The notes: a model not told the origin generated them from the sequence alone. A stretch of 64,000 bases of DNA from Dehalococcoidia bacterium (GCA_035528575.1 DATKYK010000005.1:30381-94380); one strand, 5' to 3'; shown: positions 3,691 through 27,600, counted from the first letter of the stretch. Program-made: numbers and translations.

Positions 3691-3696
3691 AAGCTA

Positions 3697-4149: not shown

Positions 4150-4228
4150 GTTTCCTCCCTGTTTTCACCTTGATACACTTTTCACCGAGGTCTTACTCTT
4201 GTGAGCACAACGTGCCACATTTGCAACC

Positions 4229-4975: not shown

Positions 4976-5160
4976 ATTTAAGGTATTATATCCTATAACG
5001 GAACCACCGCAGATTTCGCTTGGGCCACAACAGCCGCCGGAGCAAGGTTGAATAACAACTTCCTCAGCTCCACAGGTGCATTCATCAGAGGAATTGACTG
5101 GCTCTATTTAAGTAGCCAAGGGTACACCTCAGTTCCTCTCTTATCGCGGTAAACAGCTCT

Positions 5161-5424: not shown

Positions 5425-5439
5425 TTTTCTACCTCCTCT

Positions 5440-8981: not shown

Positions 8982-9060
8982 TGCGAAGGCAATGTAGCAC
9001 ATCCCGCTAAAGCCTGTCAAACGATATTTCACTGAAGTATTGCGTTAAAATTAACCAGAT

Positions 9061-9090
9061 TTGACAATACTCGTTTCTGTACTCTATAAT
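9061..9090 (+). promoter_or_regulatory. Sigma70-like promoter of the yedE-selD-selB operon (TTGACA, 18-nt spacer, TATAAT). It is followed by a ~125-nt leader.
   Basis: ttgacaatactcgtttctgtactctataat lies in the divergent selA/yedE intergenic region. Confidence 0.5.
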
Positions 9091-9217
9091 AATTCATTGA
9101 ATATAGAGAGCTAACTTGGAGAGGGGGTGAGATCGATGGCGAACCGACGCACATGAGCCGTGAAGCGGCTGAGAGCGTGGCTCTTAAAGACGGGTAAGAC
9201 CAAGAGAGAAGGAGGGC

Positions 9218-10318: not shown

Positions 10319-10327
10319 GAGGCATAT

Positions 10328-11766: not shown

Positions 11767-11971
11767 AGTCGATGCCCGCGGGCTATCATGCCCGATGCCG
11801 GTAATAAAGACTAAGAACGCCTTGGAAGACATAGAGTCAGGGGACGTGGTAGTCATCGTCAATGACGCTACAGCGCGCGATAACGTTACTCGCCTGGCAA
11901 AAAGCAAGGGGTGTGCCATCTCTGTGGAGCGAAAGGGGGATGATTTTTATCTAACCCTGACTAAGGGTTAA
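11759..11971 (+). CDS. yedF: TusA/SirA-like sulfur(selenium)-carrier protein, YedF-type
   Basis: 70 aa from the ATG at 11759 (GGAGGA RBS). CPxP motif DARGLSCPMPVIKTK. The ORF track's longer version from 11720 probably over-extends. Confidence 0.7.
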   Translation: MTEVDARGLSCPMPVIKTKNALEDIESGDVVVIVNDATARDNVTRLAKSKGCAISVERKGDDFYLTLTKG

Positions 11972-12085
11972 AAGGGGCAGAGCAAAGGAACCGAGATTCG
12001 TTCCGTGTGAAAAAAGTTGTGCGGCTTCAGCCAAGATGCTATGATGGTTCAACTACCATTCGCACTCCACAATGAAGGGAGGACA

Positions 12086-13138
12086 ATGGACGACCAAGTG
12101 AGGCCAAGGCTCACCGAGACCGTTCGCGGCTCCGGCTGAGCTTCCAAGATAGGTCCGTCGGACCTGGATAAAGCATTGTGCGGCCTGCCCCTGGTCGATG
12201 ACCCGAACCTGCTTGTCGGCCTGGAGAAGGGTGATGATGCTGCAGTGTATAGGCTGAACGATGAGCTGGCCATCATCCAGACCATCGATTTCATTACGCC
12301 CATCGTCGATGACCCCTATACCTTCGGGCAGATCGCTGCCGCCAACGCCCTTAGCGATGTCTACACCATGGGGGGCAGGCCCCTCACCGCGATGAATGTT
12401 GTCTGCTTCCCCACGAAGAGCCAGGAGATATCGGTGCTCAGGGACATCCTGCGCGGTGGATTCGATAAACTACAGGAGGCAGGGGTTGCCCTTGTTGGTG
12501 GGCACAGTGTAGAGGATAACGAACTGAAATACGGGCTATCGGTAACCGGCGTGGTACACCCAGCCAAGATAATCACCAGGGAGGGAGCCGAGATAGGGGA
12601 TAAGTTGATCCTCACCAAGCCCCTGGGCACGGGACTGGTTAGCACCGCCCTGAAGGGTGGATTGGCAGGAGAGGAGGCTGTGGCGGGAATCGTTAGCTCT
12701 ATGATTACATTGAACAGAAGGGCATCGGAGCTAATGCTGGAAGCTGAAGTACACGCCTGTACCGATATAACCGGCTACGGTCTCCTGGGGCATGCCTGTG
12801 GAATGATAGAGGATGGCCAGTTGGGCATGGAGCTCCATGTGGGGGCCATTCCCCTCTTCCCAGAGGCGAAGGAGTTCGCCCAGATGGGTCTGGCTCCAGC
12901 GGGAACACATCGCAACAGGGAGTTTCGCCTTAATATGATAGAGCAGGCTTATGAGATAGGCGATGATATATGGAGCATCCTATTTGACCCCCAAACCTCG
13001 GGTGGATTGCTGATCTCGGTCCCGGGTAAAGAGGCTGAGGCGCTACTGCAAAACCTGCACCGGAATGGCATAGAGGATGCTGCCATCATTGGAGCGGTAA
13101 TAGGCAAACCGAAGGGAAAAATCGTCATCCGGGAGTGA
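12086..13138 (+). CDS. selD: Selenophosphate synthetase (selenide, water dikinase), selenoprotein form with in-frame UGA
   Basis: ATG at 12086 (GGGAGG RBS) gives MDDQVRPRLTETVRGSGUASKIGPSDLDKALCGLPLVDDPNLLVG... The TGA at 12137-12139 aligns with catalytic Cys17/Sec of SelD (E. coli [20 protein letters not shown]). The rest matches SelD throughout. The ORF track started only at 12176, after the UGA. Confidence 0.85.
12137..12166 (+). other. Sec-encoding UGA of selD followed 11 nt later by a SECIS-like hairpin (AGGUCC-GUC-GGACCU)
   Basis: Hairpin at 12151-12165, at the canonical bacterial SECIS distance from the UGA, with G/U in the loop. Confidence 0.6.
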
Positions 13139-13141
13139 AGT

Positions 13142-14992
13142 ATGTCCTTTGTCCTGGGCACCGCAGGTCATGTCGATCACGGGAAATCGGTTCTGGTTAA
13201 GGCCCTCACCGGGATAGACCCGGACCGGCTGCGGGAGGAGAAAGAGAGAGGCCTGACCATCGACCTCGGCTTTGCCTGGTTAGAGCTGCCCAGCGGTCGA
13301 GCTGTAGGCATTGTGGACGTCCCCGGACATGAGCACTTCATAAAGAACATGCTCGCCGGTGTTGGAGGCATCGACATCGCCCTGCTCGTTGTCGCCGCCG
13401 ATGAAGGGGCAATGCCCCAGACCAGGGAGCACCTGGCCATTCTCGACCTGCTGAAGGTTGAAAATGGCATCGTAGTAATCACCAAGAAAGATCTGGTAGA
13501 CGATGAGCTGCTGGAATTGGTAACACTGGAGCTAAATGAGCTGCTGGCGAGTACAACGCTGTCCCAAGCCCCGATACTCGCCGTCTCCGCACTCACCGGC
13601 GAGGGCTTGCCCGAGTTGGTTTCCACCATTGACCTGGTTTTAGATTCGGCCACGCCCAAGCAGGACATCGGCAGACCAAGGCTTCCCATAGACCGTGTCT
13701 TTACCATGACTGGTTTTGGCACCGTGGTTACCGGAACCCTGGTCGATGGTTCTTTATCCAAGGGGCAAGAAATAGAGATCCTGCCCTCCGCTCTTACAGC
13801 ACGTATACGCGGGCTGCAATCACACAAGCAGAAGATCGACACTGCCCCTCCGGGCAGCCGCGTTGCGGCTAACCTGTCCGGTTTGTCTACCGTTGAGCTT
13901 GCGCGTGGCGATGTGGTGACCACCCCTGGTTGGCTCCTGCCGACCAGAGCGTTCGACGTCAAGCTACGCCTGCTGCCCTCTGCACCCCGCCCTCTCCCCC
14001 ATAATGCTACCGTTACCTTTCACCATGGGGCCGCCGAGGTGCTGGGGAAGGTCCGCCTGCTGGAAAGGGACAGGATTGACCCAGGGGAAACAACATGGGC
14101 TCAGTTTCTACTTGCTCAGCCCATTGCGGCTGTTAAGGATGACCGATTCATCATTCGCTCCCCCCAGGAGACCCTTGGCGGAGGGCAAATCGTTGGCCCC
14201 CGGGCAAAACGACACCGCCGCTTTCGCCCCGATGTCATTGAGAGACTAGCCACCAGGGAGGCGGGCACCGCTGAACAGATAATCCTGGCCATTATACAAG
14301 AAGAAGGGCCTCTCGAGCTGGAGAGGTTGCTGTCCCTCTGCAATCTGAGGCAAGGGGAAGCAGAGCAAGCCATAAAATCACTGGCCGCCCAGAAGAATGT
14401 TATAGCACTGAGAGACATGGGGCTGCTTTTCTCAGCCCAGGGTTGGGAAAAGCTGTCAAAGCAAGCAGAGCAAGCTGTCCGGAGATACCACCAGCAATTC
14501 CCGCTTCGCCACGGCCCTCCTAAAGAGGAACTAAAAGGCAAGCTGAAGACCCGCACCAAGTTCTTTGCCCACATACTGGAGCAGCTTATACAGGAAGGCA
14601 CTCTAATTGAGGTGGGGCCAATGGTGCGCCTGCCAGAGCACGAGCCTCAGCCAACGCCAAAACAGCAGGCGGAGGTCGACGCTTTCCTGGATAGGCTGAC
14701 ACACAATCCCTACTTGCCGTCCCTCGATCCTCTACCTGAGCCGGACCTCCTCAATCTGCTCATAGAGAAGCGTCTGGTGGTGAAGGTAAGCGATGACGTG
14801 ATCTTCCTGGCCTCTATCTATGACAAGATGGTGGATGACATAATCGCCGAGATAAAATCACGGGGCAAGGTAACCGTAGCCGAGGTCCGCGACCTTTTCC
14901 ACACCAGTCGCAAATATGCCCTGGCCCTGATGGAATACCTGGACACGCAAAAATTAACCCGCCGCGTCGGTGATGAGCGGGTGTTAAGGTAG
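13142..14992 (+). CDS. selB: Selenocysteine-specific translation elongation factor
   Basis: 616 aa. GTPase domain GTAGHVDHGKS...DVPGHE... EF-Tu-like domains II/III plus C-terminal winged-helix SECIS-binding domains. Start is 4 nt after the selD stop. Confidence 0.9.
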   Translation: MSFVLGTAGHVDHGKSVLVKALTGIDPDRLREEKERGLTIDLGFAWLELPSGRAVGIVDVPGHEHFIKNMLAGVGGIDIALLVVAADEGAMPQTREHLAILDLLKVENGIVVITKKDLVDDELLELVTLELNELLASTTLSQAPILAVSALTGEGLPELVSTIDLVLDSATPKQDIGRPRLPIDRVFTMTGFGTVVTGTLVDGSLSKGQEIEILPSALTARIRGLQSHKQKIDTAPPGSRVAANLSGLSTVELARGDVVTTPGWLLPTRAFDVKLRLLPSAPRPLPHNATVTFHHGAAEVLGKVRLLERDRIDPGETTWAQFLLAQPIAAVKDDRFIIRSPQETLGGGQIVGPRAKRHRRFRPDVIERLATREAGTAEQIILAIIQEEGPLELERLLSLCNLRQGEAEQAIKSLAAQKNVIALRDMGLLFSAQGWEKLSKQAEQAVRRYHQQFPLRHGPPKEELKGKLKTRTKFFAHILEQLIQEGTLIEVGPMVRLPEHEPQPTPKQQAEVDAFLDRLTHNPYLPSLDPLPEPDLLNLLIEKRLVVKVSDDVIFLASIYDKMVDDIIAEIKSRGKVTVAEVRDLFHTSRKYALALMEYLDTQKLTRRVGDERVLR

Positions 14993-14996
14993 ATGA

Positions 14997-15084
14997 TGGC
15001 GGGAGCGCATAGGAGTCGAACCTACCGTAGACACCGCATGGTGCCCACCAACGGATTTGAAGTCCGCGGAGTCCACCGGGGCCC
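14997..15084 (-). repeat. Truncated 3' copy of tRNA-Sec (88 nt, lacks the 5' acceptor strand). Direct repeat of 21308-21395.
   Basis: Reverse complement reads ...GGGCCCCGGUGGACUCCGCGGACUUCAAAUCCGUUGG...GGUAGGUUCGACUCCUAUGCGCUCCCGCCA. It is identical to the full selC downstream except for 1 nt, but has no 5' GGGAGCG partner for the acceptor stem. Confidence 0.75.
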
Positions 15085-15295
15085 GTGTCAATGGTGGGGG
15101 TTAATGATGTGGTTACAATTTTGCAACCTGAGGTTGTGTTGGTAAGATAACAGGTTTATCGCATCCTGGGCTATGGGCAGTGCACAGAGAATTATTGTAT
15201 CAAGCACAGTTCGCAATGTTAGTATTGACAGCATATGCCATTGCAGCTTAGAATCTCGTAGGTATAATTTAAATTCAATTAGGAGGTAATGAGCA

Positions 15296-16222
15296 ATGTG
15301 GAAAGTACTAGTCATCGGCATTATGTTGGTATTTTTATTAGCCTTGGCAGGGACTTCTGCTGCCACAACTCAACCCATGGGGGGAGCGTTTGAGACGACG
15401 CCAAAGGATTTACCTGTAATGAAACTGCCCGATGATATGAGTGGAGGGCCGACGACGCCTACTGGCAATCCATATGGTGTGCCACCAGGCCAGGATAAAA
15501 AGCCAAAACCAGATGACGGTTCAGAGGCTAATAAATGGGCAGTTGTAATTGGTATTTCCAATTACAGAGCTGGTGATTCTCTGTGGAATCCAGCGAATGA
15601 TGCCAAAGAGATGAAACAGGCGTTGATTGATAATTATGGCTTTCCGGAGAATAACATTAAACTTCTATTGGACAGAAAGGCAACAGCAAGAGCCATCGAT
15701 AAGGCGATAGACTGGCTAGCTAAGAGCGAGGATGCTGACTCGTCGGTGGTATTTTTCTTTAGTGGTCATGGGTATCGTGCAGCGGATGCTGATAAATGGG
15801 ATTCCGATGACGAGGTCGATGGTTACGATGAATTGATAGTTACGTATGACAACTATGGCCTCCCAGATGGATGGTTAAAGGGTAAGCTTTCAACCCTAGA
15901 ATCGCTAAAAATTACACTCGCCTTTGGTTCGTGTCACTCAGGGGGCATGTTCGACGACCCTGATGACCTTCAGGGTGAGGGACGTGTCATTGCAGCTGCA
16001 TGCAAAGCAGATGAGTATGGTTGGGATTACCTGCAGCTACGTAATACTCTCTGGGGCTATTACTTTGTCGATGAGGGTTTGCTCCAGGGTCTTGCTGACT
16101 TAAATGGAGATGGCGTTTCTATCCAAGAAGCCCATGCCTATGCTTATGCTGGAGTGACATCAGTGAGGGATGACTCACACCCACAGATAAGCGACCAGTA
16201 TTTTGATGAGCTAATCCCTTAA
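15296..16222 (+). CDS. Secreted caspase-family (peptidase C14, metacaspase-like) protein
   Basis: Signal peptide, then a Pro/Gly-rich linker. C14 domain WAVVIGISNYR...NDAKEM...VVFFFSGHGY (His) and LAFGSCHSGGMF (Cys). Lower GC than the flanks. Confidence 0.7.
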   Translation: MWKVLVIGIMLVFLLALAGTSAATTQPMGGAFETTPKDLPVMKLPDDMSGGPTTPTGNPYGVPPGQDKKPKPDDGSEANKWAVVIGISNYRAGDSLWNPANDAKEMKQALIDNYGFPENNIKLLLDRKATARAIDKAIDWLAKSEDADSSVVFFFSGHGYRAADADKWDSDDEVDGYDELIVTYDNYGLPDGWLKGKLSTLESLKITLAFGSCHSGGMFDDPDDLQGEGRVIAAACKADEYGWDYLQLRNTLWGYYFVDEGLLQGLADLNGDGVSIQEAHAYAYAGVTSVRDDSHPQISDQYFDELIP

Positions 16223-16245
16223 TAATATAGAAGCTAGCAATAGAC

Positions 16246-16298
16246 GGGGGGCCACCCATTATCGGGTAGCCCCCCGTAATCCGCTTGGCTAGGCTTGG
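16246..16298. repeat. Islet repeat, composite copy 1. Element A (GGGGGGCCACCCATTATCGGGTAGCCCCCC, a hairpin-forming palindrome) plus element B (AATCCGCTTGGCTAGGCT).
   Basis: Element A recurs at 17777-17804 and 18796-18824, with ~20 nt of shared upstream flank GCTGTGGGyAA. Element B recurs at 16561-16578 and 17681-17698. Confidence 0.65.
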
Positions 16299-16310
16299 TA
16301 CGGCGCATCT

Positions 16311-16529
16311 CTACAACTTGAGTTTCTGAACTATCTCACCCTGGTTGGGAAACCGGCCAGTTTCACCCTTGGAGAACACGAGCTTATCATCTGCAAAAAC
16401 ATCAAAGATGCCGTTGCTACCGGGGACTAGCTTTGTCTCTACACCAAAGGCATTGCGTAGTTCATCCGCCAGACTGGCGGCAGCGGGCTCATAGTTTCAT
16501 TGCCTGCAATAATGTATGTCAACTTTCAT
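16311..16529 (-). CDS. SelW-like (Rdx-family) selenoprotein with CxxU motif and in-frame UGA at 16497-16499
   Basis: Minus-strand translation MKVDIHYCRQUNYEPAAASLADELRNAFGVETKLVPGSNGIFDVFADDKLVFSKGETGRFPNQGEIVQKLKL (72 aa). CRQU sits at the Rdx redox motif position, and the C-terminal G.F.V...KLVFSK..GRFP signature is typical of SelW/Rdx. AGGAGG RBS 6 nt upstream. Missed by the ORF track because of the TGA. Confidence 0.65.
16466..16499 (-). other. UGA (Sec) codon of the selW-like gene with a SECIS-like hairpin (CCGCCAG-UC-UGGCGG) 16 nt downstream in the mRNA
   Basis: Hairpin at plus coordinates 16466-16480 on the minus strand, with G/U in the apical loop. Confidence 0.45.
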
Positions 16530-16548
16530 AATGTACCTCCTGCGGATT

Positions 16549-16581
16549 CTACCCTCTCCCAATCCGCCTGGCTGGGCTCTT
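16549..16581 (-). promoter_or_regulatory. Conserved 5'-leader element (element B plus flank) immediately upstream of the selW-like gene
   Basis: Minus-strand AGCCCAGCCAGGCGGATTGGGAGAGG...AGGAGGtacattATG. The same ~30-nt block precedes the nitrilase-like ATG (17671-17703). Confidence 0.45.
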
Positions 16582-16842
16582 TGCGCCGCTATCTTTTGTG
16601 GTTGTGAGCATACTCCTGGGCAGTTAGACTGTCAAGAGGCTACCAACTAAAACCGAACCGAGCCGAATGGCGGTCTACCAATCCGCTTTTCAAATCACAC
16701 ACTAATTGGCAGTTTTGGGGCATACGGTAGTTGAAGTTTGCCATGCTATTGTTTTTAACATTACTCTGTCGCGAATTCTCTAGATGAAAAAAATAGATAG
16801 GCGGGGATTAAAACATGACTGGCAAAGATTGTCGAGACCTCA

Positions 16843-17667
16843 CTATGGTGGGGGAACAGCTAAAGATGTAGTTAAATTAGAACAGGCAGCGGGATTTTGG
16901 AGCGAGAAGTCTAATATTTTTATTTTTATACGAGGAGTACCTTCTAAAACCTTATTTGAACACTCCGTAGACATATATCCTTTGTGGGGAATATAGTATC
17001 TAAACTTAGCATCTGGGCCTTGCACATGAAGCGAACACATAGAGGCAATGCCATGCTCACCCTCGCCAAGCCCCTTCATACCATGATGTACTCTAAATCC
17101 AGCCCCTCTGTGGCCTAAATCAGCTACAACATTAGATCTGGATTTGCATTCTCTCAAAGCATCTCGGATACGTTGATTAAATATCTCCCCACATATAAGC
17201 ACTCCGAGAGCTTCATCACCTATCATTAGTAGACGTACTTCCTTGCACCTCCTGTTATCTACTAACCACTGGTTATCGCTATCGGTTGACCTCTGCCTAC
17301 CATAATGAATCATCTCTTCAGTTGGACCCCAAGCATATCCATACATAGGGTCAGGCCACCATACCGTAGCCTGCTTTTGTACTTTTACTTTTGTCTTTGA
17401 CCTATGCTGGGTAGAGTCTTTATTCTCCTCATCTACTCCGAATACTACAGCAATACTTAATCTTTCAGCCTCATTTATAAGGGAATTTGCGATACGTTGT
17501 CTTGACTGAGAATCATCACAAGTAAAAAATCCACCAGGCAGCACTAATACATCAGCGCCTAATTCCTTCGCCGCTATTAAGGCCTGCTTCGCAGCTTCCA
17601 GCCTCTGTTGATTCTCGGCAGGAGTTTCAGGCCCCTGAGTTCCCACCGTAGTCGCTGCTATTTTCAT
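16843..17667 (-). CDS. Carbon-nitrogen hydrolase (nitrilase-superfamily)-like protein. Assignment is uncertain.
   Basis: 274 aa. ADVLVLPGGFF and LICGEIFN are reminiscent of the CN-hydrolase catalytic Cys context, but the motifs are atypical. A GGAGAGG RBS lies inside an islet-specific repeat. Confidence 0.35.
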   Translation of the reverse strand: MKIAATTVGTQGPETPAENQQRLEAAKQALIAAKELGADVLVLPGGFFTCDDSQSRQRIANSLINEAERLSIAVVFGVDEENKDSTQHRSKTKVKVQKQATVWWPDPMYGYAWGPTEEMIHYGRQRSTDSDNQWLVDNRRCKEVRLLMIGDEALGVLICGEIFNQRIRDALRECKSRSNVVADLGHRGAGFRVHHGMKGLGEGEHGIASMCSLHVQGPDAKFRYYIPHKGYMSTECSNKVLEGTPRIKIKILDFSLQNPAACSNLTTSLAVPPP

Positions 17668-17670
17668 GTT

Positions 17671-17703
17671 GTCCTCTCCAAATCCGCCTGGCTGGGCTGT
17701 TTA
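17671..17703 (-). promoter_or_regulatory. Second copy of the conserved 5'-leader element, upstream of the nitrilase-like gene
   Basis: Minus-strand ACAGCCCAGCCAGGCGGATTTGGAGAGGacaacATG. Confidence 0.45.
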
Positions 17704-17754
17704 AGTCACTACGTTGTTCGTGAAAGCGATAATACTCCTGCGTTACTAGCCTAT

Positions 17755-17825
17755 CAATGCTGTGGGCAATAACAGAAAGGCCGCCCATTATCGGGTAGCC
17801 CCCTACAATGCGGCTGGTTATGCTA
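17755..17825. repeat. Islet repeat, composite copy 2 (A plus degenerate B)
   Basis: caatgctgtgggcaataacagaaaggccgcccattatcgggtagccccctacaatgcggctggttatgc. Confidence 0.6.
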
Positions 17826-17969
17826 ATGCTTCTAACTCACATTCCCGCCATCTTGCACCCTAAGACCCTCCTGCGCAGCAGTTATGCCAGAATGCCCGCC
17901 CCCTTATCCCGACAGGGCGAATATCGCTGTCACTGCATTAAGGAATCCTCATTGATTAACTAGATAGGC

Positions 17970-18266
17970 TTATCGAGATAATCTTTTTGCAATTTCAACT
18001 ACTTGGCTCAGCGAAGCGACAGGATGCACCTTGAAAAAGACGAACGGAACATAGCGTTGCACCATATCGCCAATTTCCTCCTCAGTTCCCTCAGCAACTG
18101 CATAGCCGTTGATCTCGCCAACGAATGCCCCCCAATCCTTAGTTAAACCTTTTTGCATATCTTTCTTAACCATATCGAGCAAGGTACCCCATCCGGTCCC
18201 TCGCTCTTGAGGACTAATAGGTACTTTCGTCCGGTCTACTTCCCAAAGCATCAGATACTTTCCCAT
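17970..18266 (-). CDS. Hypothetical small protein (98 aa), possibly a GYD/alpha+beta-barrel-like fold
   Basis: ORF with a weak NGYAVAEG motif. No confident family. Confidence 0.3.
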   Translation of the reverse strand: MGKYLMLWEVDRTKVPISPQERGTGWGTLLDMVKKDMQKGLTKDWGAFVGEINGYAVAEGTEEEIGDMVQRYVPFVFFKVHPVASLSQVVEIAKRLSR

Positions 18267-18539
18267 GGCCTTGTTCCTCCTTCTCTGATTAGTCTTCTGG
18301 CTTGCACTCGATTCTCAGGCTACGCGATATCATCACCTCCCTCGCTTTATATGCAGTGAGCCAGGGCTGGGCTTCTATACCCCGCTTAAAGGTTTTTAGG
18401 CAAAACCGTAGGTCACCATACTTCCTGAGCCGATATTCTTTTTTGTGTGAATCCTCAGTTTTGCCCGTATGTGATTATGGCTATTCTTGGCGCAACATTC
18501 CCATTATCAATTTAATTGTAATGGTGAACGGCACTTTTG

Positions 18540-18633
18540 TCTGTAGAGAAAGTCTGTATTTTTTGTGGGGAAAGTCTGTATATTTTTGTGTGGGGAAAAC
18601 CCTGACAAAAATGTGGATTTTTGTAGGGAGGGC
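18540..18633. repeat. Iteron-like direct repeats (AAGTCTGTAT(A)TTTTTGTG(T)GGGGAAA x2 plus a degenerate third copy, with GTCTGTA x3)
   Basis: Seen directly, ~300 nt upstream (in minus sense) of the 98-aa gene. Confidence 0.5.
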
Positions 18634-18773
18634 TTGACACACGTCGATACCGCAGTGCGGGCTGGCAGGCTCAAGGGTGCGGGGAAGCAGGAGCGCAGCC
18701 CGCAAGCACCGTGCGTAGCCCTATCGGGCAAGGCAAGGCAACGCTGCCTATATAGTAGTGAAAACTAGGCTGT

Positions 18774-18826
18774 CAGTGCTGTGGGTAAAAAGATAGGGGG
18801 CCACCTATTTTCGGGTAGCCCCTGTT
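18774..18826. repeat. Islet repeat, copy 3 (element A with shared upstream flank). Lies just 3' of the beta-helix gene stop.
   Basis: gtgctgtgggtaaaaagatagggggccacctattttcgggtagcccctg. Confidence 0.6.
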
Positions 18827-18851
18827 ATCTTTCTGTACGCTACCGTGTAGC

Positions 18852-20675
18852 CTACGCTACTCTCTTCCTCTTAATCAACACTGCAACTGTCATAGCTACC
18901 ACTATAAGAGCAGCAAGTCCCAGCCACGGTGCTAGTATGCCAATCTTATCCACAGGCTCGACAATCCCGCCAACTGCAACCTGTCTCTCATATGCTCCCA
19001 CGTCGCAGACGTAGGTGCCATCTATATCCCCGTCCGCCGGCCGTGGTTGCCCCCGCTGGTCGGTGGTTAGGTTACATGAAACAATGCAGGCGTCTATGGC
19101 CGGGCTGCCAGTTATTAGAGCGTGGGTCTCTGTGGGACCCCCGTTATCCTGAAGCGGGCCGAGGAGGGGGTCGGGAGCAGGGCTAAGAAGCTCATCTACG
19201 ATGGATTCGCCGCCGATGTCTAAGTACTCACCGTAGTAGTTCTTATCAACAGCAGCATTATTACCGTATATTATGGTGCATCTTAGCTCTACATACTCCG
19301 CCCAACCCGTCCCTTCGTTATAAACGCCACCACCCCAATTCTGTGCAGAGTTATTGCTTACCGTGCAGTTAGTAAGAGTTGTAAGGCCCACGTAGGTATA
19401 TATGCCACCACCTTCCTTAGCGTTGTTTCCACTCACTGTACAGTTGGTCATATCCACTCGGCCACTATCATTACGAATACCACCACCGTTATCCCCGGCT
19501 TCGTTGCCGCTGATGGTGCAGTTGGTCAGCGTCACCTCGTCTTCATTGTTATAAATACCGCCGCCATCGCCAGAGGCGTTGTTTCCGCTGATGGTGCAGT
19601 TGGTCATCGTCACCGTGAAATCCGGCCCGACGGTACCAATGCCGCCGCCGTTGCCGTCCCGGGCAGTGTTGCCGCTGACGGTACAATCGGTCATCGTCAC
19701 GTGACCGCCGTAGTTATAAATGCCGCCTCCGTTATAGGCCTCATTTCCGCTTACGGTGCAGCCGGTCATCGTCAGCTCATCACCATAATCATTAAAGATG
19801 CCACCACCATTATTGTCGGCATCGTTTCCGCTTACGGTGCAGCCGGTCATCGTCACATTGCCACTATTATAAATGCCGCCTCCGTCGGGAGCCTCATTTC
19901 CAATTATGGTGCAGTTGGTCATCTCAAGCGGGCCATCGTTCCGAATGCCGCCGCCTTCGGTATCGGCCTTGTTATCGCTGACGGTGCAGCCGGTCATCGT
20001 CAGCCCATCTCCCGCCCCCCCGTTGTTATAAATGCCACCGCCGAGCATCCCGCTCGCGGCAGTGTTTCCGCTGACGGTGCACTTGGTCAGTGTCACCTCG
20101 CCCCCGTCTCTATAAATGCCGCCTCCCCAAAAATTAGCCTCATTCCCACTTATGGTGCAGCCGGTCATCGTGAGATTGCCACCGTTGTTATATAGGCCGC
20201 CTCCATTATAAGCCTCATTCCCACTTACGGTGCAGTTGGTCATCGTCACATTGCCGTATTCGTTATATAGACCGCCGCCGTTTGCTGCGGTTGAAACATT
20301 GCCATTCCGAATCGTCATGCCGGACATATCGACCGTGGAATTATTTATATAAAACACCCTGCTCATATCCTCACCGTCAACGAAGGTGCTTCCCGCACCT
20401 GCACCCCGTAGCGTCAGGGACTTGTTTATTGTAATGTCATGCTCATTGTATTGCCCTGCTGCTATGATGATGGTATCGCCTGCGGATGCGTTCCCGATAG
20501 CGCTCTGAATTTTACAGAACGGGTTGCCCACCGTGCCTGTCCCTGGCCCAGGGCAGCTCGTAGCATCAACATACCAAGGCGGTTGTGCAGACACTGTGCC
20601 TATTGGAATTATTACCGAGGCCAACGAAAATACAAGTACCAGAGCCACTACCATACTAACCATCCTGGCTTTCAT
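18852..20675 (-). CDS. Secreted parallel-beta-helix repeat surface protein with a C-terminal membrane anchor and basic tail
   Basis: 607 aa. Signal peptide. More than 15 tandem ~22-aa repeats of the type GGGIYN.G.VTMTNCTVSGN.A (PbH1-like). C-terminus ...IGILAPWLGLAALIVVAMTVAVLIKRKRVA. Confidence 0.65.
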   Translation of the reverse strand: MKARMVSMVVALVLVFSLASVIIPIGTVSAQPPWYVDATSCPGPGTGTVGNPFCKIQSAIGNASAGDTIIIAAGQYNEHDITINKSLTLRGAGAGSTFVDGEDMSRVFYINNSTVDMSGMTIRNGNVSTAANGGGLYNEYGNVTMTNCTVSGNEAYNGGGLYNNGGNLTMTGCTISGNEANFWGGGIYRDGGEVTLTKCTVSGNTAASGMLGGGIYNNGGAGDGLTMTGCTVSDNKADTEGGGIRNDGPLEMTNCTIIGNEAPDGGGIYNSGNVTMTGCTVSGNDADNNGGGIFNDYGDELTMTGCTVSGNEAYNGGGIYNYGGHVTMTDCTVSGNTARDGNGGGIGTVGPDFTVTMTNCTISGNNASGDGGGIYNNEDEVTLTNCTISGNEAGDNGGGIRNDSGRVDMTNCTVSGNNAKEGGGIYTYVGLTTLTNCTVSNNSAQNWGGGVYNEGTGWAEYVELRCTIIYGNNAAVDKNYYGEYLDIGGESIVDELLSPAPDPLLGPLQDNGGPTETHALITGSPAIDACIVSCNLTTDQRGQPRPADGDIDGTYVCDVGAYERQVAVGGIVEPVDKIGILAPWLGLAALIVVAMTVAVLIKRKRVA

Positions 20676-21307
20676 TTTCGCAACATCCTCCCAGTTTGAA
20701 ATTGAAAGGGTATTAATCCCTGCTAATTATGTGCGCCGTGCGTGATTTCAATCGAAATTAGACCATATCTGATAGAGCCTGTCAATGGCTCTAAGCAGCG
20801 GCGGATGGCAACAGGCTGGCGGGCTCAAGATACCGGTTGGCCAGATGGGTAGGCTAGAATATCCTGCTGCTATTAAATTCTGTAGCTATTCAATGACTTT
20901 TTCATGTTGATTAGTATACCTATTCAACGCAAAGTTCAACGTGACAGGCTCACCGGTCGAGAATTACCATTCTACCTTCCAGCTCCACCCCCGGCCATAA
21001 ATATACCCTCGAATATAAACACGTAGCCACTCCAGGGCAAATATGAGCGCTTTAACCTAATTCTAAGCCTGGGGCGACGGTGAGCTGTGCTGTGGCTGGT
21101 GAGCATATACACTCTAGCGGGGTGAAATTGCCGGTAAGAAGCTAGGACGTGATTGGGTAGTCCTGAGCTTGGACTATAAAAGGAAGAGGAAGCCGAAGGT
21201 TAAGAAAGGAGAGGGCAATGCAAAAAGCTGATCAAACTGCTAAGCAATTCGTTGCGGAAGAGTTTCAAACACCTCCAAATAATTCCGTAAAACCGCTGAA
21301 ATTAGAT

Positions 21308-21405
21308 TGGCGGGAGCGCATAGGAGTCGAACCTACCGTAGACACCGCAAGGTGCCCACCAACGGATTTGAAGTCCGCGGAGTCCACCGGGGCCCATCCG
21401 CTCCC
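21308..21405 (-). tRNA. selC: tRNA-Sec (anticodon UCA), full length with encoded CCA
   Basis: Reverse complement GGGAGCGGAU GGGCCC-CGGU-GGACUC ... GCGGA-CUUCAAA-UCCGU ... long variable stem-loop ... GUAGG-UUCGACU-CCUAU GCGCUCCC G CCA. It has a 6-bp D-stem with 4-nt loop, UCA anticodon, long extra arm and 5-bp T-stem, all typical of bacterial tRNA-Sec. There is a G-G mismatch at acceptor pair 8. Confidence 0.8.
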
Positions 21406-21996
21406 ACTATTTATCAAAGCTCTACCTGGGCTTCAGGCAGCGCAATACGCTTCTTAGATGGCTGGACAAGCAAAACCAGAAATGCTTCCGCAAGGTAGGG
21501 GTGGACCGCTGGTAACGCAATAAGCGAGCTTTCCCGATACCTAATAGAACATAACATCACCGGCACTCATCCCTAGAAGCCTGATGATCTCACACAAGGC
21601 CCCGCCACCATATCCTACTGCATAACAATTCTGGAAGTCGCATTCTGTCACATTATTCACAAACTGTCAAGCATCAAACCAGAGCACATCAAGGTGTCGC
21701 CAGAGCTGTAAAGCGATAGCCCTGTCGTACCGCCTCACCTCGGCCAGCGAATCCACTGCCAAAAGGGGTAATCTCAGGCTACTGAGAGAATATCTCATGA
21801 AACAGGGAGGATTCAAGTACATTGCCCAAGAGCAGATAAATGAACTTCAGGGCTGGATAAATGCCCGGTGCCAACTTTGCCTGGACCGGGCTAACGAATT
21901 TATAGAAAGTGCTCTCGCTTACCAAGGACTGGAAGGAAAAGAAAACGATAACCAACCTCAAGGAGTGAGCAATTCTATGATTGTGCTTTTTTTCAC

Positions 21997-22025
21997 TTTA
22001 CAAAAAAAATGACATGTTGTATAAT
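21997..22025 (+). promoter_or_regulatory. Sigma70-like promoter of the nuo operon (-35 TTTACA, 17-nt spacer, -10 TATAAT)
   Basis: tttacaaaaaaaatgacatgttgtataat, ~55 nt upstream of the nuoA TTG start. GGAGGGG RBS. Confidence 0.5.
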
Positions 22026-22081
22026 GCCAAAAGTTGTTGTAAAATACTGCAGGTTTCCAAATTAACTCGGAGGGGCGATAT

Positions 22082-22453
22082 TTGCTAGGTGACTTCGGTT
22101 ACATTGGAATTTTCCTCGTTGCTGCTCTTGGTTTTACCGCCTCAATGATCCTAATCCCCGTTACCCTCAGGCTCCTCCACATCGTCCCCCGGAAGCCCAA
22201 CCCCACAAAGTACACCACCTATGAGTGCGGCATGGAAACGATAGGCAACTCCCGGGTTCAATTCAACTTCCGCTATTATTTCTTTGCCCTGCTCTTTGTA
22301 ACCTTCGATGTACAGGTGGTCTTTCTCTATCCCTGGGCAGTGGAGCTAAAGCAGCTTAAGCTCTTCGGGCTGGTGGAGATGCTGGCATTCGTACTGATCC
22401 TGATGGTCGGTTTTGTCTATGCGTGGAGAAAGGGGGTTCTAAAGTGGAAATAG
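22082..22453 (+). CDS. nuoA: NADH-quinone oxidoreductase subunit A
   Basis: 123 aa, 3 TM. ...[40 protein letters not shown]... conserved NuoA core. TTG start. Confidence 0.85.
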
Positions 22454-23040
22454 AGATGCCCTATGTGAGCAGCGAGCTGGATAAGACCGAGGGCGCGGAA
22501 ATAGAGGCGCTCATCGCAGCTTCAAGGGAGCCCTATCCCGATCCGGTAGCCTGGCTCCATGAGGAGCTTCAGCGCAATGTGCTGCTTACCTCAACCGAGC
22601 ACGTTATAGACTGGGGGAAGCGCTACTCTGTCTGGCCGGTTCTCCTGGGGCTCGCCTGCTGCGCCTTCGAGATGATCTGTGCTGCTGCTTCGCGCTATGA
22701 TTTCTCTCGATTCGGCATGGAGGTTTTTCGCTTCTCCCCACGCCAGGCCGACCTGATGCTTGTTGCCGGCACGCTCACCTGGAAGATGGCCCCAGCCCTG
22801 AGGCGAATCTATGATCAGATGGCCGAGCCGAAGTGGGTCATAGCTATGGGGGCCTGCACTATCAGCGGTGGGGCATTCCGTGGTTCCTATAGCGTGGTTC
22901 CCGGGATAAACCTCATCGTCCCGGTAGACGTCTACATCCCCGGGTGCCCGCCTCGCCCCGAGGGTCTGCTCCACGGATTCATGGAGCTGCATCGCAAGGT
23001 CTTGAAAGACAAACTTATAAAGAAAGAAAAGGATGACTAA
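22423..23040 (+). CDS. nuoB: NADH-quinone oxidoreductase subunit B (N2 cluster subunit)
   Basis: Motif GLACCAFEM...GACTISGG...IPGCPP (four Cys ligands of cluster N2). The true start may be the ATG at 22456, directly after the nuoA stop. Confidence 0.85.
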
Positions 23041-23507: not shown

Positions 23508-24611
23508 ATGACGCTCAAGACCGAGCCAGTCACTATTAATATAGGGCCGCAGCACCCCTCAACCCATGGGGTATTTCGGATGAGGGTCACCTTCGATGGC
23601 GAGGTGATCGTCGATATGGAGCCCATCTTTGGCTACCTCCACCGCGGGATCGAGAAGCTCGCAGAGCATAAAACCTACACCCAGAATATCCCCTTTACCG
23701 ATAGGCTGGACTACCTGGCCTCGATGTCCAATAACTTTGCCTACGTGCTAGCGGTGGAGAAGCTTGCCGGTATCGAGGTCCCCGAGCGGGCAGAATATAT
23801 CAGAATAATAATGGCCGAGCTTATGCGGATTGCCAGTCACCTCATGGGAGTGGGATTTTTCTTCAACGACATGGGAGCCTTCATGACGCCGGTCCTTTAT
23901 ATGTTACGCGAGCGGGAAAAGATCCTAGACCTCTTTGAGATGGCCTGCGGGCAGCGCCTGACCTATAACTATATGCGCTTCGGCGGGGTTAGCCACGATA
24001 TCCCCCAGGAGTTTATACCGGCACTGAAGAGGTTTATCGGTGAGATGCCCCGCTATATCGATGAATACGACCAGCTTCTTGCCGAGAACGAGGTGGTACT
24101 TGCCCGCGCCAAGGGAGTGGGCATTCTACCAGCGGATAAGGCAATCAACGCTTCGGTCGCCGGCCCGGTGCTGCGTGCCAGCGGGGTAAAGTGGGACCTG
24201 CGCAAGGCAGATCCCTACTCTATCTATGACCGGTTCGATTTCGACATCCCTACCGGCACCAATGGCGATAACTACGACCGGTACCGGATTAAGATAGAGG
24301 AGATTAAGCAGAGCGTGCGCATTATCGAGCAGGCTATGGAGCAGATTCCCCAAGGGGAGGTACGCACCAGGGTATCGCCGACATTCAAGCCGCCTAAAGG
24401 GGAAGCCTACGGCAGGGTGGAGGGCCCCAAGGGAGAGCTGGGCTTTTATCTGGTGAGCGATGGCTCTGCTAAACCCTATCGCTTCAAGGTACGTGCCCCA
24501 ACACTACTAAACCTCACCGTACTCCGCGATATGATTATCGGACGGATGCTGGCAGATGCCATAATCACCTTTGGCAGCATTGACATCTGTATGGGCGAGG
24601 TGGATCGCTAG
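23508..24611 (+). CDS. nuoD: NADH-quinone oxidoreductase subunit D (49 kDa)
   Basis: 367 aa. [39 protein letters not shown]...ICMGEVDR matches Nqo4/NuoD end to end. Confidence 0.9.
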
Positions 24612-27600
24612 TGGGCGTTCTCGAGCAGTTCCAGGATTGGCTGCTGGGCTATATCCCCGGTTGGGCAGCATACCTCATACCCGTAGTCATCGCCTTCGCC
24701 ATCCTCTCCACCTTTATTCTGCTTGTGGTAATGGCCTTTATTTACATCGAGCGGAGAGGGATAGGAAGATTCCAGGTTCGCCAGGGGCCCAATCGAGCAG
24801 GCCCACAGGGCATCCTTCAACCGGTAGCAGATGCCATCAAGATACTGCTGAAGGAGGACATCATCCCCATCCTGGGGGACCGCTGGGTTCACTGGCTAGC
24901 CCCCATAATAATCTTCACTCCCGTATTAATGATCTTCGCTATCATACCCTGGGGCCACGGTGCTTTCATCGCCGACCTTAATATCGGCATACTTTACATA
25001 ATAGCGATATCCTCTCTGAGCGTAGTTGGTATTTTCATGGCGGGGTGGGGCTCAAGCAATAAATACTCCCTGCTTGGTGCCATGCGCGCTGTGGCCCAGA
25101 TGGTAAGCTATGAGATCCCGCTGGTGCTCTCCATCATTGGTGTGCTCATAATAACCGGCTCCATGTCCATGGTGAGTATCGTGGAGGCACAGACCGTGCC
25201 CTTCCTTCTGCTCCAACCCTTGGGGTTAATGATCTTCTTCCTGGCAGCAGCCGCAGAGATCAACCGCAGCCCCTTCGACCTCCTGGAGGCAGATTCGGAG
25301 ATTGTCGCCGGCTTCCATACGGAATACTCCGGAATGAAGTATGGCCTCATTATGCTCGGGGAATACGCTCACGCCTTCGCCGTTTCCGCTATCCTGACCA
25401 CCCTTTTCCTCGGTGGAGGCAGCGGGCCACTACTACCGGCGGTGTTGTGGTTCATGATTAAGGTGTTACTGGTTTTTGTCACCCTCGTATGGATACGGAG
25501 CACCCTGCCCCGGCTCAGGGTGGACCAACTGATGGAGTTTGCCTGGAAGTTCCTCTTCCCACTGGCATTGGCAAATATCTTTATCACCGCGATTGAGGTT
25601 ATCGTCTGGCCCTCGTTCCCCTGGTGGCTTATGTTCATTAATATCCCCGTCGCCATCATACTCATTATCCTATGGTCAAGTATGTTCAGGGTGTACGGGG
25701 AGAGGTTTAGCCTCAGGCATTTCGGCCGTGGCGTTGCCAAGGGGATGGCTCTTACCTTCAGGCATCTTTTACGCAGCCCCATCACGGTACAGTATCCTGA
25801 GCAGCGGCTCAATGTTTCCAGGCGGGCACGGGGCCAACGATTTATACGGGATGAGCGCAAACGGGCTCCATGCATTGCGGCGTGCCCTGCCAGCGTGGAT
25901 GTGCAGGGATATGTCTCTCTTATCACCCAGGGTCGATTTGTTGAAGCGGTTGAGCTCATCAGGCAAACCAATCCCTTCCCCGTCGTCTGCGGGCGGGTCT
26001 GCACCCACCCCTGCGAAACGGCCTGCAACCGGGGATCTATGGATAAAGCGGTCGCCATCCGTGAACTAAAGCGCTTCGTGACCGACTATGAAATGAGCGT
26101 AGGCAGGGGAGAGATAATGCCGTACCCCCGAACCAAAGACGAGCGGGTAGCGGTTATTGGCTCAGGGCCTGGAGGGTTGACCGCCGCCCGCGATCTGTCG
26201 AGGATGGGCTATGGGGTGACCGTCTTCGAAGCGCTCCCGGTCGCCGGCGGGATGATGTCGGTAGGTATTCCGGAGTATCGTTTGCCCAAAGCGGTGCTGC
26301 AAAAGGAGATCGATGGAATACTGCAGCTTGGTGTTGAACTGAAGCTGGAAAGCCCCCTAGGCAAAGATGGCCTGACACTGGAATCGCTCAAAGGACAAGG
26401 CTATAAAGCCATTATCATGTCCGTGGGTGCCCATGAAAGCATGAAACTGGACATCCCCGGCGAAGACATTGAGGGAGTATATCACGGGGTTTTTTTCCTC
26501 AGGGATGTACTCCTGGGCAAAAAGGTCAAGGTGGGAAATAGGGTCGCCATAGTTGGCGGAGGTAATGTGGCCATCGACGCTGCGCGAACCGCCCTCCGCC
26601 TCGGCGCCAAGGAGGTAACTATTGTTTACCGCAGGTCGCGGCAGGAGATGCCCGCCGCTGAGGAGGAGATAGAGGATGCGGAGGCCGAGGGGATCAATAT
26701 CCATTATCTGGCGGCGCCGGTCAGGGTTGTTGAAGATGGAGGGAAGCTGGCAGGCCTGGAGTGCATTCGGATGGAGCTGGGCGAACCCGATGCCAGCGGC
26801 AGAAGGCGCCCGGTACCCGTCGATGGGTCGGAATTTATACTCGACATCGACATGCTCATTCCCGCCATCGGTCAGGTCACTGACCTCTCCTGCTTGCCCC
26901 ATGATCACAAACTTAATATCACAAAGAGAGGGACATTCGAGGTCGACCCCCTCAGCATGGCTGCCAACATATCCGGCGTCTTCGCCTGCGGGGATGCCGT
27001 GAGCGGGCCCAAGACTGTGGTTGAGGCTATCGGGGCAGGAACCAAGGCTGCCCTCGCCGTCGACTGCTACCTTCGCGGCGAAAAATTCGGAGAGCTGGAG
27101 CCAGTGCTGCCACTAAAGGAGGTAGCTTTCGAGGATCTCGATATCAGCGATGTCGAGAGTAAAGAGAGGGCAAAGGTATCCCACTTACCGGTTAAGGATA
27201 GGATCCGCAGCTTCGAGGAGGTAGCCCTCGGCTTTTCAGAAGAGACGGCTATAGAGGAAGCCAACAGGTGCCTCAACTGTGGCTTCTGTGCCTGGTGCCG
27301 GCAGTGCGAAAATGCCTGTCCCTACGGGGTTATCAGGATAGTACCCCAGGAGACCCCGGAGGGTACGACCGGAGTGGAAAGGTTTGACATCGACCTCGGA
27401 GAATGTATATTCTGCGGCCTGTGCATCGAGGCATGTCCGGCACACCGACTATATCTATCGAGAATATACGAAGCATCCTGTTACCGGCGGGGAGACCTAT
27501 TACTGGATAAGGAGGGGCTAATACCATCCCCCGAAAAACAGCCGAGTGCCTATGCCCGTCCCGAGATTGAGCCTGCCCTGCCCAAACAGGCCCTTCTACT

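Follow-up and report, generated by a model that had tools for sequence, protein, structure and literature searches.

A five-gene islet between a tRNA-Sec gene and an 88-nt copy of its 3' part in an uncultured Dehalococcoidia bacterium

The locus

We analysed a stretch of 64,000 nucleotides (nt) from a Dehalococcoidia bacterium (GCA_035528575.1 DATKYK010000005.1:30381-94380), referred to throughout as the window, in which an initial annotation made from the sequence had picked out an islet next to the gene for the selenocysteine tRNA (tRNA-Sec, selC). What lies there, in this uncultured member of the Dehalococcoidia, is a 6.2-kb block of five accessory genes with the tRNA-Sec gene at one end and an 88-nt copy of the 3' part of that gene at the other. 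The two tRNA copies and the five genes, with protein lengths in amino acids (aa) and open reading frames abbreviated as ORFs, are as follows.

14997-15084, minus strand: displaced 3' fragment of tRNA-Sec, positions 11-98, with its CCA end beside selB (88-nt direct repeat; attR-like role)
15296-16222, plus strand: caspase-family (C14) protein with a signal-peptide-like N-terminus (Pfam Peptidase_C14, E = 3.9e-17; PADLOC caspase, E = 2.6e-22)
16311-16529, minus strand: SelW/Rdx-family selenoprotein gene with a CRQU motif (Pfam Rdx, NCBIfam NF041051, in-frame TGA)
16843-17667, minus strand: divergent 274-aa protein with a nitrilase-superfamily fold, from a small uncharacterised family (AlphaFold model and Foldseek)
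17970-18266, minus strand: 98-aa protein with no assigned function (ORF; called as a gene in independent assemblies)
18852-20675, minus strand: parallel beta-helix protein of 607 aa, secreted or at the surface, with PMP-type repeats and a choice-of-anchor Q domain (Pfam, NCBIfam)
21308-21405, minus strand: complete tRNA-Sec, anticodon UCA (tca) (ARAGORN; attL-like role)

The tRNA-Sec gene and its partial copy

The complete gene was the only tRNA that ARAGORN called in the whole 64-kb window (as tRNA-SeC). It scored 70.2 bits with the Rfam tRNA-Sec model RF01852 (threshold 47), folded into a cloverleaf at -47.1 kcal/mol (z = -2.3 relative to shuffled sequences) and is 100% identical to the tRNA-Sec genes of four related loci (L004, L098, L101 and L107). 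The initial annotation had reported that it shares 88 nt, with one mismatch, with a 5'-truncated copy abutting the selB stop codon, and ARAGORN, a repeat search and BLAST recovered this arrangement: a direct repeat in two copies, each of 88 nt (14997-15084 and 21308-21395), that are 99% identical with E = 1e-39, whose sole mismatch falls at position 56 of the tRNA, within the loop that tops the long variable arm. The partial copy lies 4 nt past the selB stop, convergent with selB, and lacks the ten 5' bases of the tRNA, GGGAGCGGAT, which make up the 5' acceptor strand and a two-base linker; it begins at position 11, the start of the D-stem, and homology between the copies ends within about 5 nt of either flank.

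The partial copy is not a tRNA. ARAGORN made no call there, the Rfam model gave 46.4 bits against its threshold of 47 with the acceptor stem left unaligned, and the fold was no better than that of shuffled sequence (z = +0.7). The initial annotation had expected one full and one partial tRNA-Sec, as is found here, and had allowed for an alternative acceptor stem in the partial copy, of which none of these three analyses gave a sign.

The same structure, with both junctions 100% identical, is present in two independent assemblies (ENA ERZ27256827 and JGI 3300031539), and in two further assemblies the parts of the islet that they cover are 99.5% identical. A chimeric contig, joined by the assembler through tRNA-Sec, might be suspected since several related contigs end at or in tRNA-Sec copies (among them L179, L001 and L180), but with two independent pipelines (ENA, JGI) spanning both junctions, and two more agreeing as far as they reach, we regard the probability of such an artefact as negligible.

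An empty site in relatives

With SelB as the query we collected 80 loci from species-representative genomes and a further 80 from metagenomes, every one of which belongs to Dehalococcoidia or Chloroflexota. In the closest relative found, L097 (SelB 97% identical in amino acids), nucleotide identity is 96.2% over 2244 nt up to window position 15084, where the alignment ends, to resume at 21307; its selB stop is followed by 7 nt, a complete tRNA-Sec and then 36 + 119 nt that match the right flank of the window at 90%. This arrangement is that of a predicted empty site, in which the 6.2 kb of 15085-21307 are simply absent. About 30 other loci, with SelB identities from 82% down to 59%, likewise have selB abutted by one complete convergent tRNA-Sec, which we therefore take to be the ancestral arrangement. 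Viewed this way, the comparison supports 15085-21307 as an insertion relative to an ancestral order in which selB ran directly into one convergent tRNA-Sec. Relatives with selB followed directly by a single tRNA-Sec, for which the initial annotation had proposed to look, are thus represented by L097 and about 30 other loci and favour insertion; its condition for an internal duplication, the same gene order with one tRNA-Sec copy and no repeat, did not come true. Its description of an insertion into the 3' part of a tRNA gene agrees with the classic geometry, in which a full tRNA is followed by the island and then by a displaced 3' fragment, directly oriented. A recent origin is suggested by strain variants that carry the islet at 99.5% identity, by its absence from L097 at 96% and by the two tRNA copies, which differ at 1 of 88 positions.

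The evidence of this comparison also bears on a local origin of the repeat, by which tRNA-Sec would have been duplicated in place, the partial copy would be a decayed second gene and the gap between the two would have been filled later. Duplication at this locus has a precedent in L007, which carries two complete tRNA-Sec genes 4.4 kb apart, but what the copy in the window is missing is precisely the 5' acceptor strand, its 3' end sits in the ancestral place beside selB, the homology stops within about 5 nt of the flanks, most of the intervening genes are compositionally foreign (see below) and the closest relative has an empty site. We consider a local duplication very unlikely.

The selB/tRNA-Sec junction in other Dehalococcoidia

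Fragments of tRNA-Sec beside selB, or duplications that include the gene, were found at further loci, as listed here with the DNA that accompanies them.

L001 (94% SelB identity): fragment of 69 nt; unrelated sequence, with the contig ending before any full tRNA
L135: fragment of 69 nt abutting selB; insert of 2.7 kb
L027: fragment of 67 nt; insert of 1.0 kb
L041 and L159: fragment of 54 nt, 100% identical; insert of 1.5 kb with one EEP-nuclease gene
L133: stacked fragments of 30 + 67 nt; insert of 4.6 kb
L004, L098, L101, L104 and L107 (the 85% clade, after its SelB identity): fragment of about 20 nt with 3 mismatches; 0.64-2.15 kb of non-coding DNA
L007: 346-nt duplication that takes in 60 nt of selB plus the tRNA with its upstream region; insert of 4.4 kb

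Together with the window these loci make the selB/tRNA-Sec junction a recurrent hotspot across the Dehalococcoidia, with leftovers of about 20, 30, 54, 66-69 and 88 nt. The fragments of the relatives start at tRNA positions other than that of the window, most commonly at 30-33 (L001, L135, L027, L137 and L149) and otherwise at 45 (L041) or 69 (L128 and L133). Positions 30-33 lie in the anticodon stem and loop, which is a classical crossover site of tyrosine integrases.

Integrase remnants accompany some of these fragments. L135 encodes a truncated tyrosine integrase of 140 aa (4400-4819, minus strand; Phage_integrase E = 1.3e-5) that lies 52 nt downstream of a full tRNA-Sec (4871-4967, minus strand), and with its integrase exactly at the expected place it is the best preserved remnant of a selC island in the set. 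Integrase fragments adjoin selB in L148 and L028, and in two viral contigs from IMG/VR (L087, 617-1955; L088, 4180-5280) a tyrosine integrase lies directly beside a tRNA-Sec 3' fragment of about 70 nt that runs from the anticodon stem to the CCA end. These viral contigs are high in GC and probably derive from another host group.

An all-against-all comparison of the inner ends of the inserts linked only the window with the 85% clade, and the members of a group of four (L133, L137, L149 and L114) with one another. Many related contigs stop at selB or inside tRNA-Sec, and larger, strain-variable islands are therefore probably under-represented among the assembled examples.

Several loci show structures of their own. 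L133 (11852-16592) has tandem tRNA-Sec 3' fragments of about 7, 30 and 67 nt followed by the full gene, and these fragments separate small modules that encode UDG-family, metallophosphoesterase-like, 223-aa and TPR proteins, suggesting serial accretion at selC. The two complete tRNA-Sec genes of L007 lie in a 346-nt duplication (7874-8219 and 12355-12700, 96.5% identity) that flanks a gene for an AMP-binding enzyme and is accompanied by further repeats (8395-8705 with 12823-12968 and 13956-14118); it looks like a Campbell-type homologous integration and not like an event at an att core. In L004 the 2.15-kb insert, compared with those of L098, L101 and L104, has an extra 1.5 kb nested within it and contains an internal repeat of about 135 nt (12423-12561 and 12985-13116, or 575-713 and 1137-1268 of the insert) at 91-92% identity, which may reflect miniature repeat elements. 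L066, considered as a further partial copy with an island, was set aside as a rearrangement, the fragment there being followed by housekeeping genes.

Composition of the islet and search for mobility genes

Relative to the 37 other genes of the window, whose GC content at third codon positions (GC3) is 0.63 +/- 0.07, the C14 gene (0.42, z = -3.1), the 274-aa gene (0.35, z = -4.2) and the 98-aa gene (0.44, z = -2.8) are clearly foreign in composition, and the Rdx gene (0.52) deviates only moderately. The lower GC that the initial annotation had ascribed to the islet as a whole was upheld for four of the five genes as judged by GC3, but not for the beta-helix gene, which at 0.58 is native-like. 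In a search of 5.8 billion proteins, among which SelB proteins of sister lineages at 84-96% identity are present, neither the C14 nor the 274-aa protein had a homologue above 70-75% identity; the closest homologue of the C14 protein beyond its own lineage is 70% identical, despite sister lineages being sampled. At the nucleotide level, blastn of 15085-21307 gave no match in the first 80 related loci, and among the loci fetched later only one part of the islet turned up, a cassette around the Rdx gene that is described below.

No integrase, transposase, excisionase or recognisable pseudogene of one was found in the islet or in the 64-kb window. The cargo proteins contain no Phage_integrase or other recombinase domain by Pfam and NCBIfam; tblastn with four tyrosine integrases from related and viral loci gave a best E value of 0.078 in the window, and a hidden Markov model (HMM) built from six integrases, run on the six-frame stop-to-stop translation of the window, gave a best value of 0.77, both outside the islet. 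Pfam annotation of the called genes over most of the window returned only housekeeping functions (ars, sel, nuo, tricarboxylic acid cycle and folate), and the stretch beside the full tRNA where an integrase usually lies, 20676-21307, is non-coding and holds no integrase remnant. Thus the statement of the initial annotation that the islet has neither integrase nor transposase held in domain searches, tblastn and the HMM search alike, and the distal integrase pseudogene that it had thought worth looking for was not found anywhere in the 64 kb by tblastn, HMM or Pfam.

Non-coding modules and mosaic structure

Between the genes lie two families of repeats, D6 and D8, and two non-coding inner ends.

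15085-15295, no strand: left inner end, non-coding, with a promoter-like site at 15225-15254 upstream of the C14 gene (the L097 alignment breaks at 15084)
16237-16295, no strand: D6a, a strong hairpin that separates the C14 and Rdx genes, which converge on it, GGGGGGCCACCC/GGGTAGCCCCCC (fold -36.3 kcal/mol, z = -3.2)
16553-16591, minus strand: D8a, 5' leader upstream of the Rdx gene, on whose strand it reads AGCCCAGCCAGGCGGATTGGGAGAGG (the cassette common with L181 has its right edge here; promoter-like site at 16635-16607)
17673-17711, minus strand: D8b, this 5' leader again, now upstream of the 274-aa gene (promoter-like site at 17757-17729)
17766-17824, no strand: D6b, where the hairpin recurs downstream of the 98-aa gene (repeat search, folding)
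18786-18844, minus strand: D6c, third copy of the hairpin, followed by a T-run, likely the intrinsic terminator of the beta-helix gene (repeat search and terminator scan)
20676-21307, no strand: 632-nt non-coding stretch beside the 3' end of the full tRNA (no ORF, no integrase remnant)

Two of these modules delimit a cassette that is shared with close relatives. In L180 and L181 (SelB 96% and 94% identical) the selB stop is followed by about 24 nt, a D6 hairpin with a T-run and the SelW-like gene, and between selB and that gene neither locus has a recognisable tRNA fragment or a C14 gene. L181 3005-3333 matches window 16248-16576 at 90.6% nucleotide identity, with homology that starts inside D6a, the left edge of the cassette, and stops at the end of D8a; past the cassette L181 continues with a D8 leader and then a different small Cys/His-rich gene. 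Since the Rdx cassette stands beside selB without the repeat in these two relatives, not everything between the repeats of the window arrived in one event, and the cassette appears to be older at the locus than the present repeat and the C14 gene.

The right-hand inner end tells of a different relationship. The last 90 nt of the 632-nt stretch, 21218-21307, are conserved, being 75-79% identical to the same position in L098, L101, L104, L107 and L004, the inserts of which are otherwise unrelated, as expected of related elements that would share a common att-proximal arm. The divergence of this inner end, about 21%, equals that of the neutral right flank (79% identity). An insertion as old as the split from the 85% clade would have left the fragment with about 9 changes instead of 1 (Poisson estimate, P about 0.001), and a single ancient insertion common to the window and that clade is disfavoured on this count, unless gene conversion or a later re-integration took place. 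The near-perfect repeat speaks for one of three histories: an element akin to that of the 85% clade integrated or re-integrated recently, gene conversion occurred, or an empty allele took part in recombination. Taken together, the islet is a mosaic, probably of at least three pieces: the fragment with the C14 gene; the SelW-like cassette; and the 274-aa, 98-aa and beta-helix genes with the right end.

The repeat might also have come about with no site-specific recombinase, through recombination of DNA in the empty arrangement with a filled allele, the left end being anchored in selB and the right end made illegitimately or through short shared modules such as D6, so that tRNA positions 98 to 11 stayed beside selB. 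Relatives with SelB identity of >=94% present at least four alleles (the window, L097, L001 and L180/L181), homology between window and L181 breaks off precisely within the D6 hairpin and where the D8 leader ends, the duplication of L007 fits a Campbell-type homologous integration, and the fragment gives the impression of being young, the inner right end of being old. However, the fragment starts exactly at the 3' end of the tRNA, as it does at the loci with integrase remnants, fragment lengths cluster at structural landmarks of the tRNA (about 20, 30, 54 and 66-69 nt) and are not random, and no donor allele with a C14 gene beside a tRNA fragment was found among the loci. On balance we judge recombination of this kind unlikely as the origin of the repeat.

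Proposed integration at tRNA-Sec and loss of the integration module

The reading that we consider probable, with moderate confidence, is that of a small genomic islet at a tRNA-Sec (selC) integration hotspot, where an element integrated site-specifically, its integration module was later lost and its interior was remodelled among alleles. To the observed repeat, empty site, foreign composition and missing integrase this adds entry by an integrase, loss of that integrase and an order of events, all of which we infer. Starting from selB and tRNA-Sec in convergent orientation and 4-8 nt apart, an element endowed with its own copy of the tRNA-Sec 3' part would have recombined with the chromosomal gene, most likely by means of a tyrosine integrase, as at other tRNA genes. 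A functional tRNA would thereby have been rebuilt from the chromosomal 5' end and the 3' part of the element, staying with its promoter and the nuo operon, and the original 3' part would have been left beside selB as a dead fragment of 88 nt, with the DNA of the element between the two copies. The integrase and any genes for excision or transfer would later have been deleted, and the interior remodelled by recombination with other alleles of this variable locus. The islet now looks immobile, save for a possible RecA-dependent deletion between the 88-nt repeats that would restore an exact empty site; were the islet to circularise, the predicted junction would read ...CCGCTGAAATTAGAT, tRNA positions 98-11, GTGTCAATGGTGG...

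Several observations weigh against this reading or against parts of it. L180 and L181 speak against a single event, and the fragment has 1 change where an insertion of the age suggested by the inner right end would have about 9. With no integrase or remnant of one in the islet or the window, entry by such an enzyme is an inferred step. The 88-nt block, reaching the D-stem, is longer than the 66-69-nt class of the loci with integrase remnants, and none of the roughly ten independent small inserts at the junction has an intact integrase, so that mobilisation in trans or another mechanism would be equally possible for them. The initial annotation had called the islet probably a decayed or immobilised island; the mosaic is not one clean element, and decay would follow by analogy from the truncated integrase at the equivalent position in L135 and from nothing inside the window itself.

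Mobilisation in trans would make of the islet a non-autonomous and still mobilisable element, akin to a cis-mobilisable element (CIME), with functional att sites of tRNA-Sec sequence and a selC-specific integrase supplied from elsewhere in the genome or by a passing element. Paired att-like repeats (88 nt, 99%) without recombinase or transfer genes, as in CIMEs, are what the islet has; its repeat copies are near identical (1/88) though the inner right end looks old, all small inserts at the junction are without an intact integrase and some have perfect repeats around a single gene (L041, 54 nt and 1.5 kb), the stacked fragments of L133 are as expected of accretion, and integrase-less tandem islands at ssrA in Dehalococcoides have been proposed to be cis-mobilisable (PMC3146451). 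However, no second copy of the islet and no other context for it was found, either among the six contigs with the C14 gene that an exact-protein look-up returned, all of which show the same context, or in the first 80 of the roughly 165 loci; moreover the assembled contigs across the site are biased towards small, fixed inserts, many others stopping at selB or tRNA-Sec. We hold a still mobilisable element to be quite unlikely here.

Comparison with known islands

In Enterobacteria the islands at selC span tens of kb, and as a rule a P4-like integrase is retained beside selC. The present islet resembles those of E. coli, such as LEE (the enterocyte effacement locus), in its target, tRNA-Sec, in variable cargo and in the presence of different islands in different strains (PMC6174562, PMC3408504), but its host belongs to an unrelated phylum, it measures 6.2 kb and is without integrase, and its selC is convergent with and abuts selB. 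Nearer in phylogeny are the ssrA islands of Dehalococcoides mccartyi, a member of the same class, which likewise have low GC, a single-copy gene for a structured RNA as landing site and direct repeats of the 3' end of that gene as limits; they are arranged in tandem, and some that lack an integration module were proposed to be cis-mobilisable or fixed (PMC3146451). They differ in that the target is tmRNA, the repeat is 20 bp long and lies at the T-loop, and the recombinase is the serine recombinase DsiB (PMC3146451), whereas the selC remnants of L135, L148 and L028 are of tyrosine integrases.

For the Islander database, which deals with tyrosine-integrase islands, islands in tRNA genes are delimited by the regenerated target and a displaced fragment (PMC4383910). 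The islet shares with the islands so described an intact target, a displaced 3' fragment in direct orientation, foreign composition and a precise empty site, four of their defining features; an integrase is missing, the identity block is longer than usual (88 nt, to the D-stem) and the mosaic interior is found in part in relatives without the repeat. With CIMEs it has in common two att-like repeats around cargo and no recombination or transfer genes, while its mobility, a cognate integrase and a parental element are only putative. The biology is ordinary, the usual scar of a mobile element in a tRNA gene minus the integrase, and it is the host that is unusual. A full-text literature search returned no paper joining Dehalococcoidia with selC or tRNA-Sec islands.

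The meaning of these results is that tRNA-Sec is a hotspot of insertion and plasticity in uncultured, streamlined Dehalococcoidia, beside the known tmRNA hotspot of Dehalococcoides, which explains why many metagenomic contigs of Dehalococcoidia break right after selB. The locus also provides a worked example, with a filled site, an empty site at 96% identity and a decay series, that should help in annotating metagenome-assembled genomes and in spotting integrase-less remnants. Practical consequences are limited, the cargo consisting of accessory surface or secreted proteins, a small selenoprotein and a member of an uncharacterised nitrilase-fold family; the thread of wider interest is whether integrase-less modules at this site move in trans. 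A bolder idea, which we regard as speculative and improbable, is that the junction serves as a dedicated landing pad where a recombinase acting in trans would insert, stack and exchange small integrase-less modules, with the lineage-specific D6 and D8 as joints for the shuffling of single-gene cassettes and with a target confined to Sec-using hosts that would ensure that selenoprotein cargo, for instance the SelW-like gene, can be expressed.

The cargo genes

The Pfam match of the C14 protein (E = 3.9e-17) and its signal-peptide-like N-terminus agree with the signal-peptide metacaspase of the initial annotation. Its homologue P0161 stands in an ordinary chromosomal setting beside msrA/msrB, which is uninformative. 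A reading of the cargo as a defence island was set aside, PADLOC having matched a generic caspase model only.

The product of 16311-16529 is a predicted selenoprotein of the SelW/SelT/SelH (Rdx) family with a thioredoxin fold, in line with the SelW-like protein first proposed. It matches Pfam Rdx with E = 5.9e-21 and 74.9 bits (cut-off 22.6) and NCBIfam NF041051 (SelT/SelW/SelH) with 91.4 bits (cut-off 88), and its CRQU motif, a CxxU near the N-terminus, occupies residues 8-11, with the UGA at 16497-16499. The ORF and its TGA are kept in the strain variants, and the TGA also in L181. A hairpin of 6 bp in the mRNA, CCGCCA-GUC-UGGCGG, lies 16 nt downstream of the UGA and is no more stable than those of shuffled sequences.

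For the 274-aa protein the term nitrilase-like was found to apply to the fold. The protein matches no Pfam family (CN_hydrolase included) and no NCBIfam family, and has homologues in 28 clusters; its AlphaFold model (pLDDT 82.6) matched nitrilase and amidase structures of the PDB in Foldseek with E = 2e-11 and a TM score of about 0.6. In an alignment with 25 homologues Cys159, in a CGEIF motif, is invariant, and where the catalytic 'PE' glutamate would usually stand, all 26 proteins have LP[GAS]G. The modelled protein is thus nitrilase-like at the level of the fold only, and its catalytic competence is uncertain. The family seems to travel with integrative islands: in L094 (3278-14405) a homologue shares its island with an N6/N4 methyltransferase, SHOCT, an AAA_15 ATPase, HTH_17 and an integrase, and others lie near a C-terminal fragment of an integrase (L091-L093; in L091 at 13057-13215).

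The small protein of the initial annotation corresponds to the 98-aa ORF at 17970-18266, for which Pfam, NCBIfam and PADLOC gave no family. The 607-aa protein, in turn, matches Pfam Beta_helix (E = 1.3e-28) and Chlam_PMP as well as NCBIfam choice_anch_Q (E = 1.2e-23) and ends in a hydrophobic segment and a basic tail, as befits the beta-helix surface protein with a C-terminal anchor that had been proposed. Every one of the five genes has a promoter-like site of its own, and the shared hairpin follows each of them except the 274-aa gene. They are therefore probably ordinary accessory genes, whose products would be secreted or located at the surface or, in two cases, be a selenoprotein with a thioredoxin fold and a divergent enzyme with a nitrilase fold.

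The D6 and D8 repeats

The three D6 copies are best read as candidate terminators. D6a is terminator-like, the terminator scan placed a terminator in D6c at 18822-18797 with the tail CTATCTTTTT, and in L181 a D6-type hairpin with a T-run ends the Rdx gene. An integron cassette array was considered for these repeats of about 59 nt and rejected, there being no IntI or any other integrase, no attC core of the form GTTRRRY/RYYYAAC (judged by eye) and a behaviour like that of terminators.

D8 looks like a shared 5' leader or operator. A motif of about 26 nt, AGCCCAGCCAGGCGGATTKGGAGAGG on the gene strand, occurs in this lineage just upstream of where several small genes, unrelated to one another, have their start codons, among them those for the SelW-like protein, the 274-aa protein, a 56-aa Cys/His-rich ORF and a flavin mononucleotide (FMN) reductase-like protein. 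Its occurrences in the window are 16553-16591, 17673-17711, 16278-16295 and 55624-55644, and in relatives about 3330-3360 and 3540-3570 of L181, 13349-13382 of L101 and 11943-11968 of L007. At the left inner end, the promoter-like site at 15225-15254 reads TTGACA-18-TAGAAT, with 11 of 12 matches, and 15085-15295 has no homologue among about 165 related loci. Neither D6 nor D8 belongs to an Rfam family, a permissive search of 11500-22500 having given the two tRNA-Sec matches only.

Repeat families confined to the islet, as the initial annotation had it, come down to D6, which within the window occurs in the islet only; most of the families, D1-D5 and D10, are coding repeats inside the beta-helix gene, and D8 is found also at 55625 and in related genomes.

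Chromosomal flanks and the wider window

On either side of the islet lie the chromosomal flanks.

13142-14992, plus strand: selB, left chromosomal flank (Pfam GTP_EFTU, SelB beta-barrel and SelB winged-helix domains)
21406-22081, no strand: right chromosomal flank, the region upstream of tRNA-Sec up to nuoA at 22082 (comparison with L004 and L097)

On the left, selB is syntenic with selD in about 165 related loci. The right flank is 79% identical to that of L004 across 691 nt, L004 likewise having tRNA-Sec and then nuoA, and the empty-site locus L097 matches it at 90% identity over 21406-21441 and 21618-21735. In L004, L104 and L107 (about 85% SelB identity) nuoA lies about 690 nt past tRNA-Sec, as in the window, at 79-87% identity.

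Further to the left, 7620-14992 form a compact selenium-utilisation cluster consisting of selA (minus strand), a YedE-like Sulf_transp gene, Se_S_carrier, a Carb_kinase-like gene, TusA, selD and selB, and upstream of it, at 1590-6483, are the arsenic-resistance genes ACR3, ArsG-like, ArsF-like and ArsP. In the nuo operon, a 1013-aa ORF (24611-27652, plus strand) has NuoH (PF00146) fused with Fer4_20, Pyr_redox_2 and Fer4_7. Such a fusion of a membrane subunit with a GltD-like flavin and iron-sulfur module is unusual; complex I seems to be without NuoEFG here, and the fused module might be its electron input.

In some relatives the genes beside tRNA-Sec are those of a formate dehydrogenase instead of nuo (L097, 2593-4238; L101, 16762-19893), which marks the 5' side of selC as a point of rearrangement too. 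In L101 the frame of fdhA is broken by an in-frame TGA, running from 16762 to 17349 and then from 17398 to 19893.

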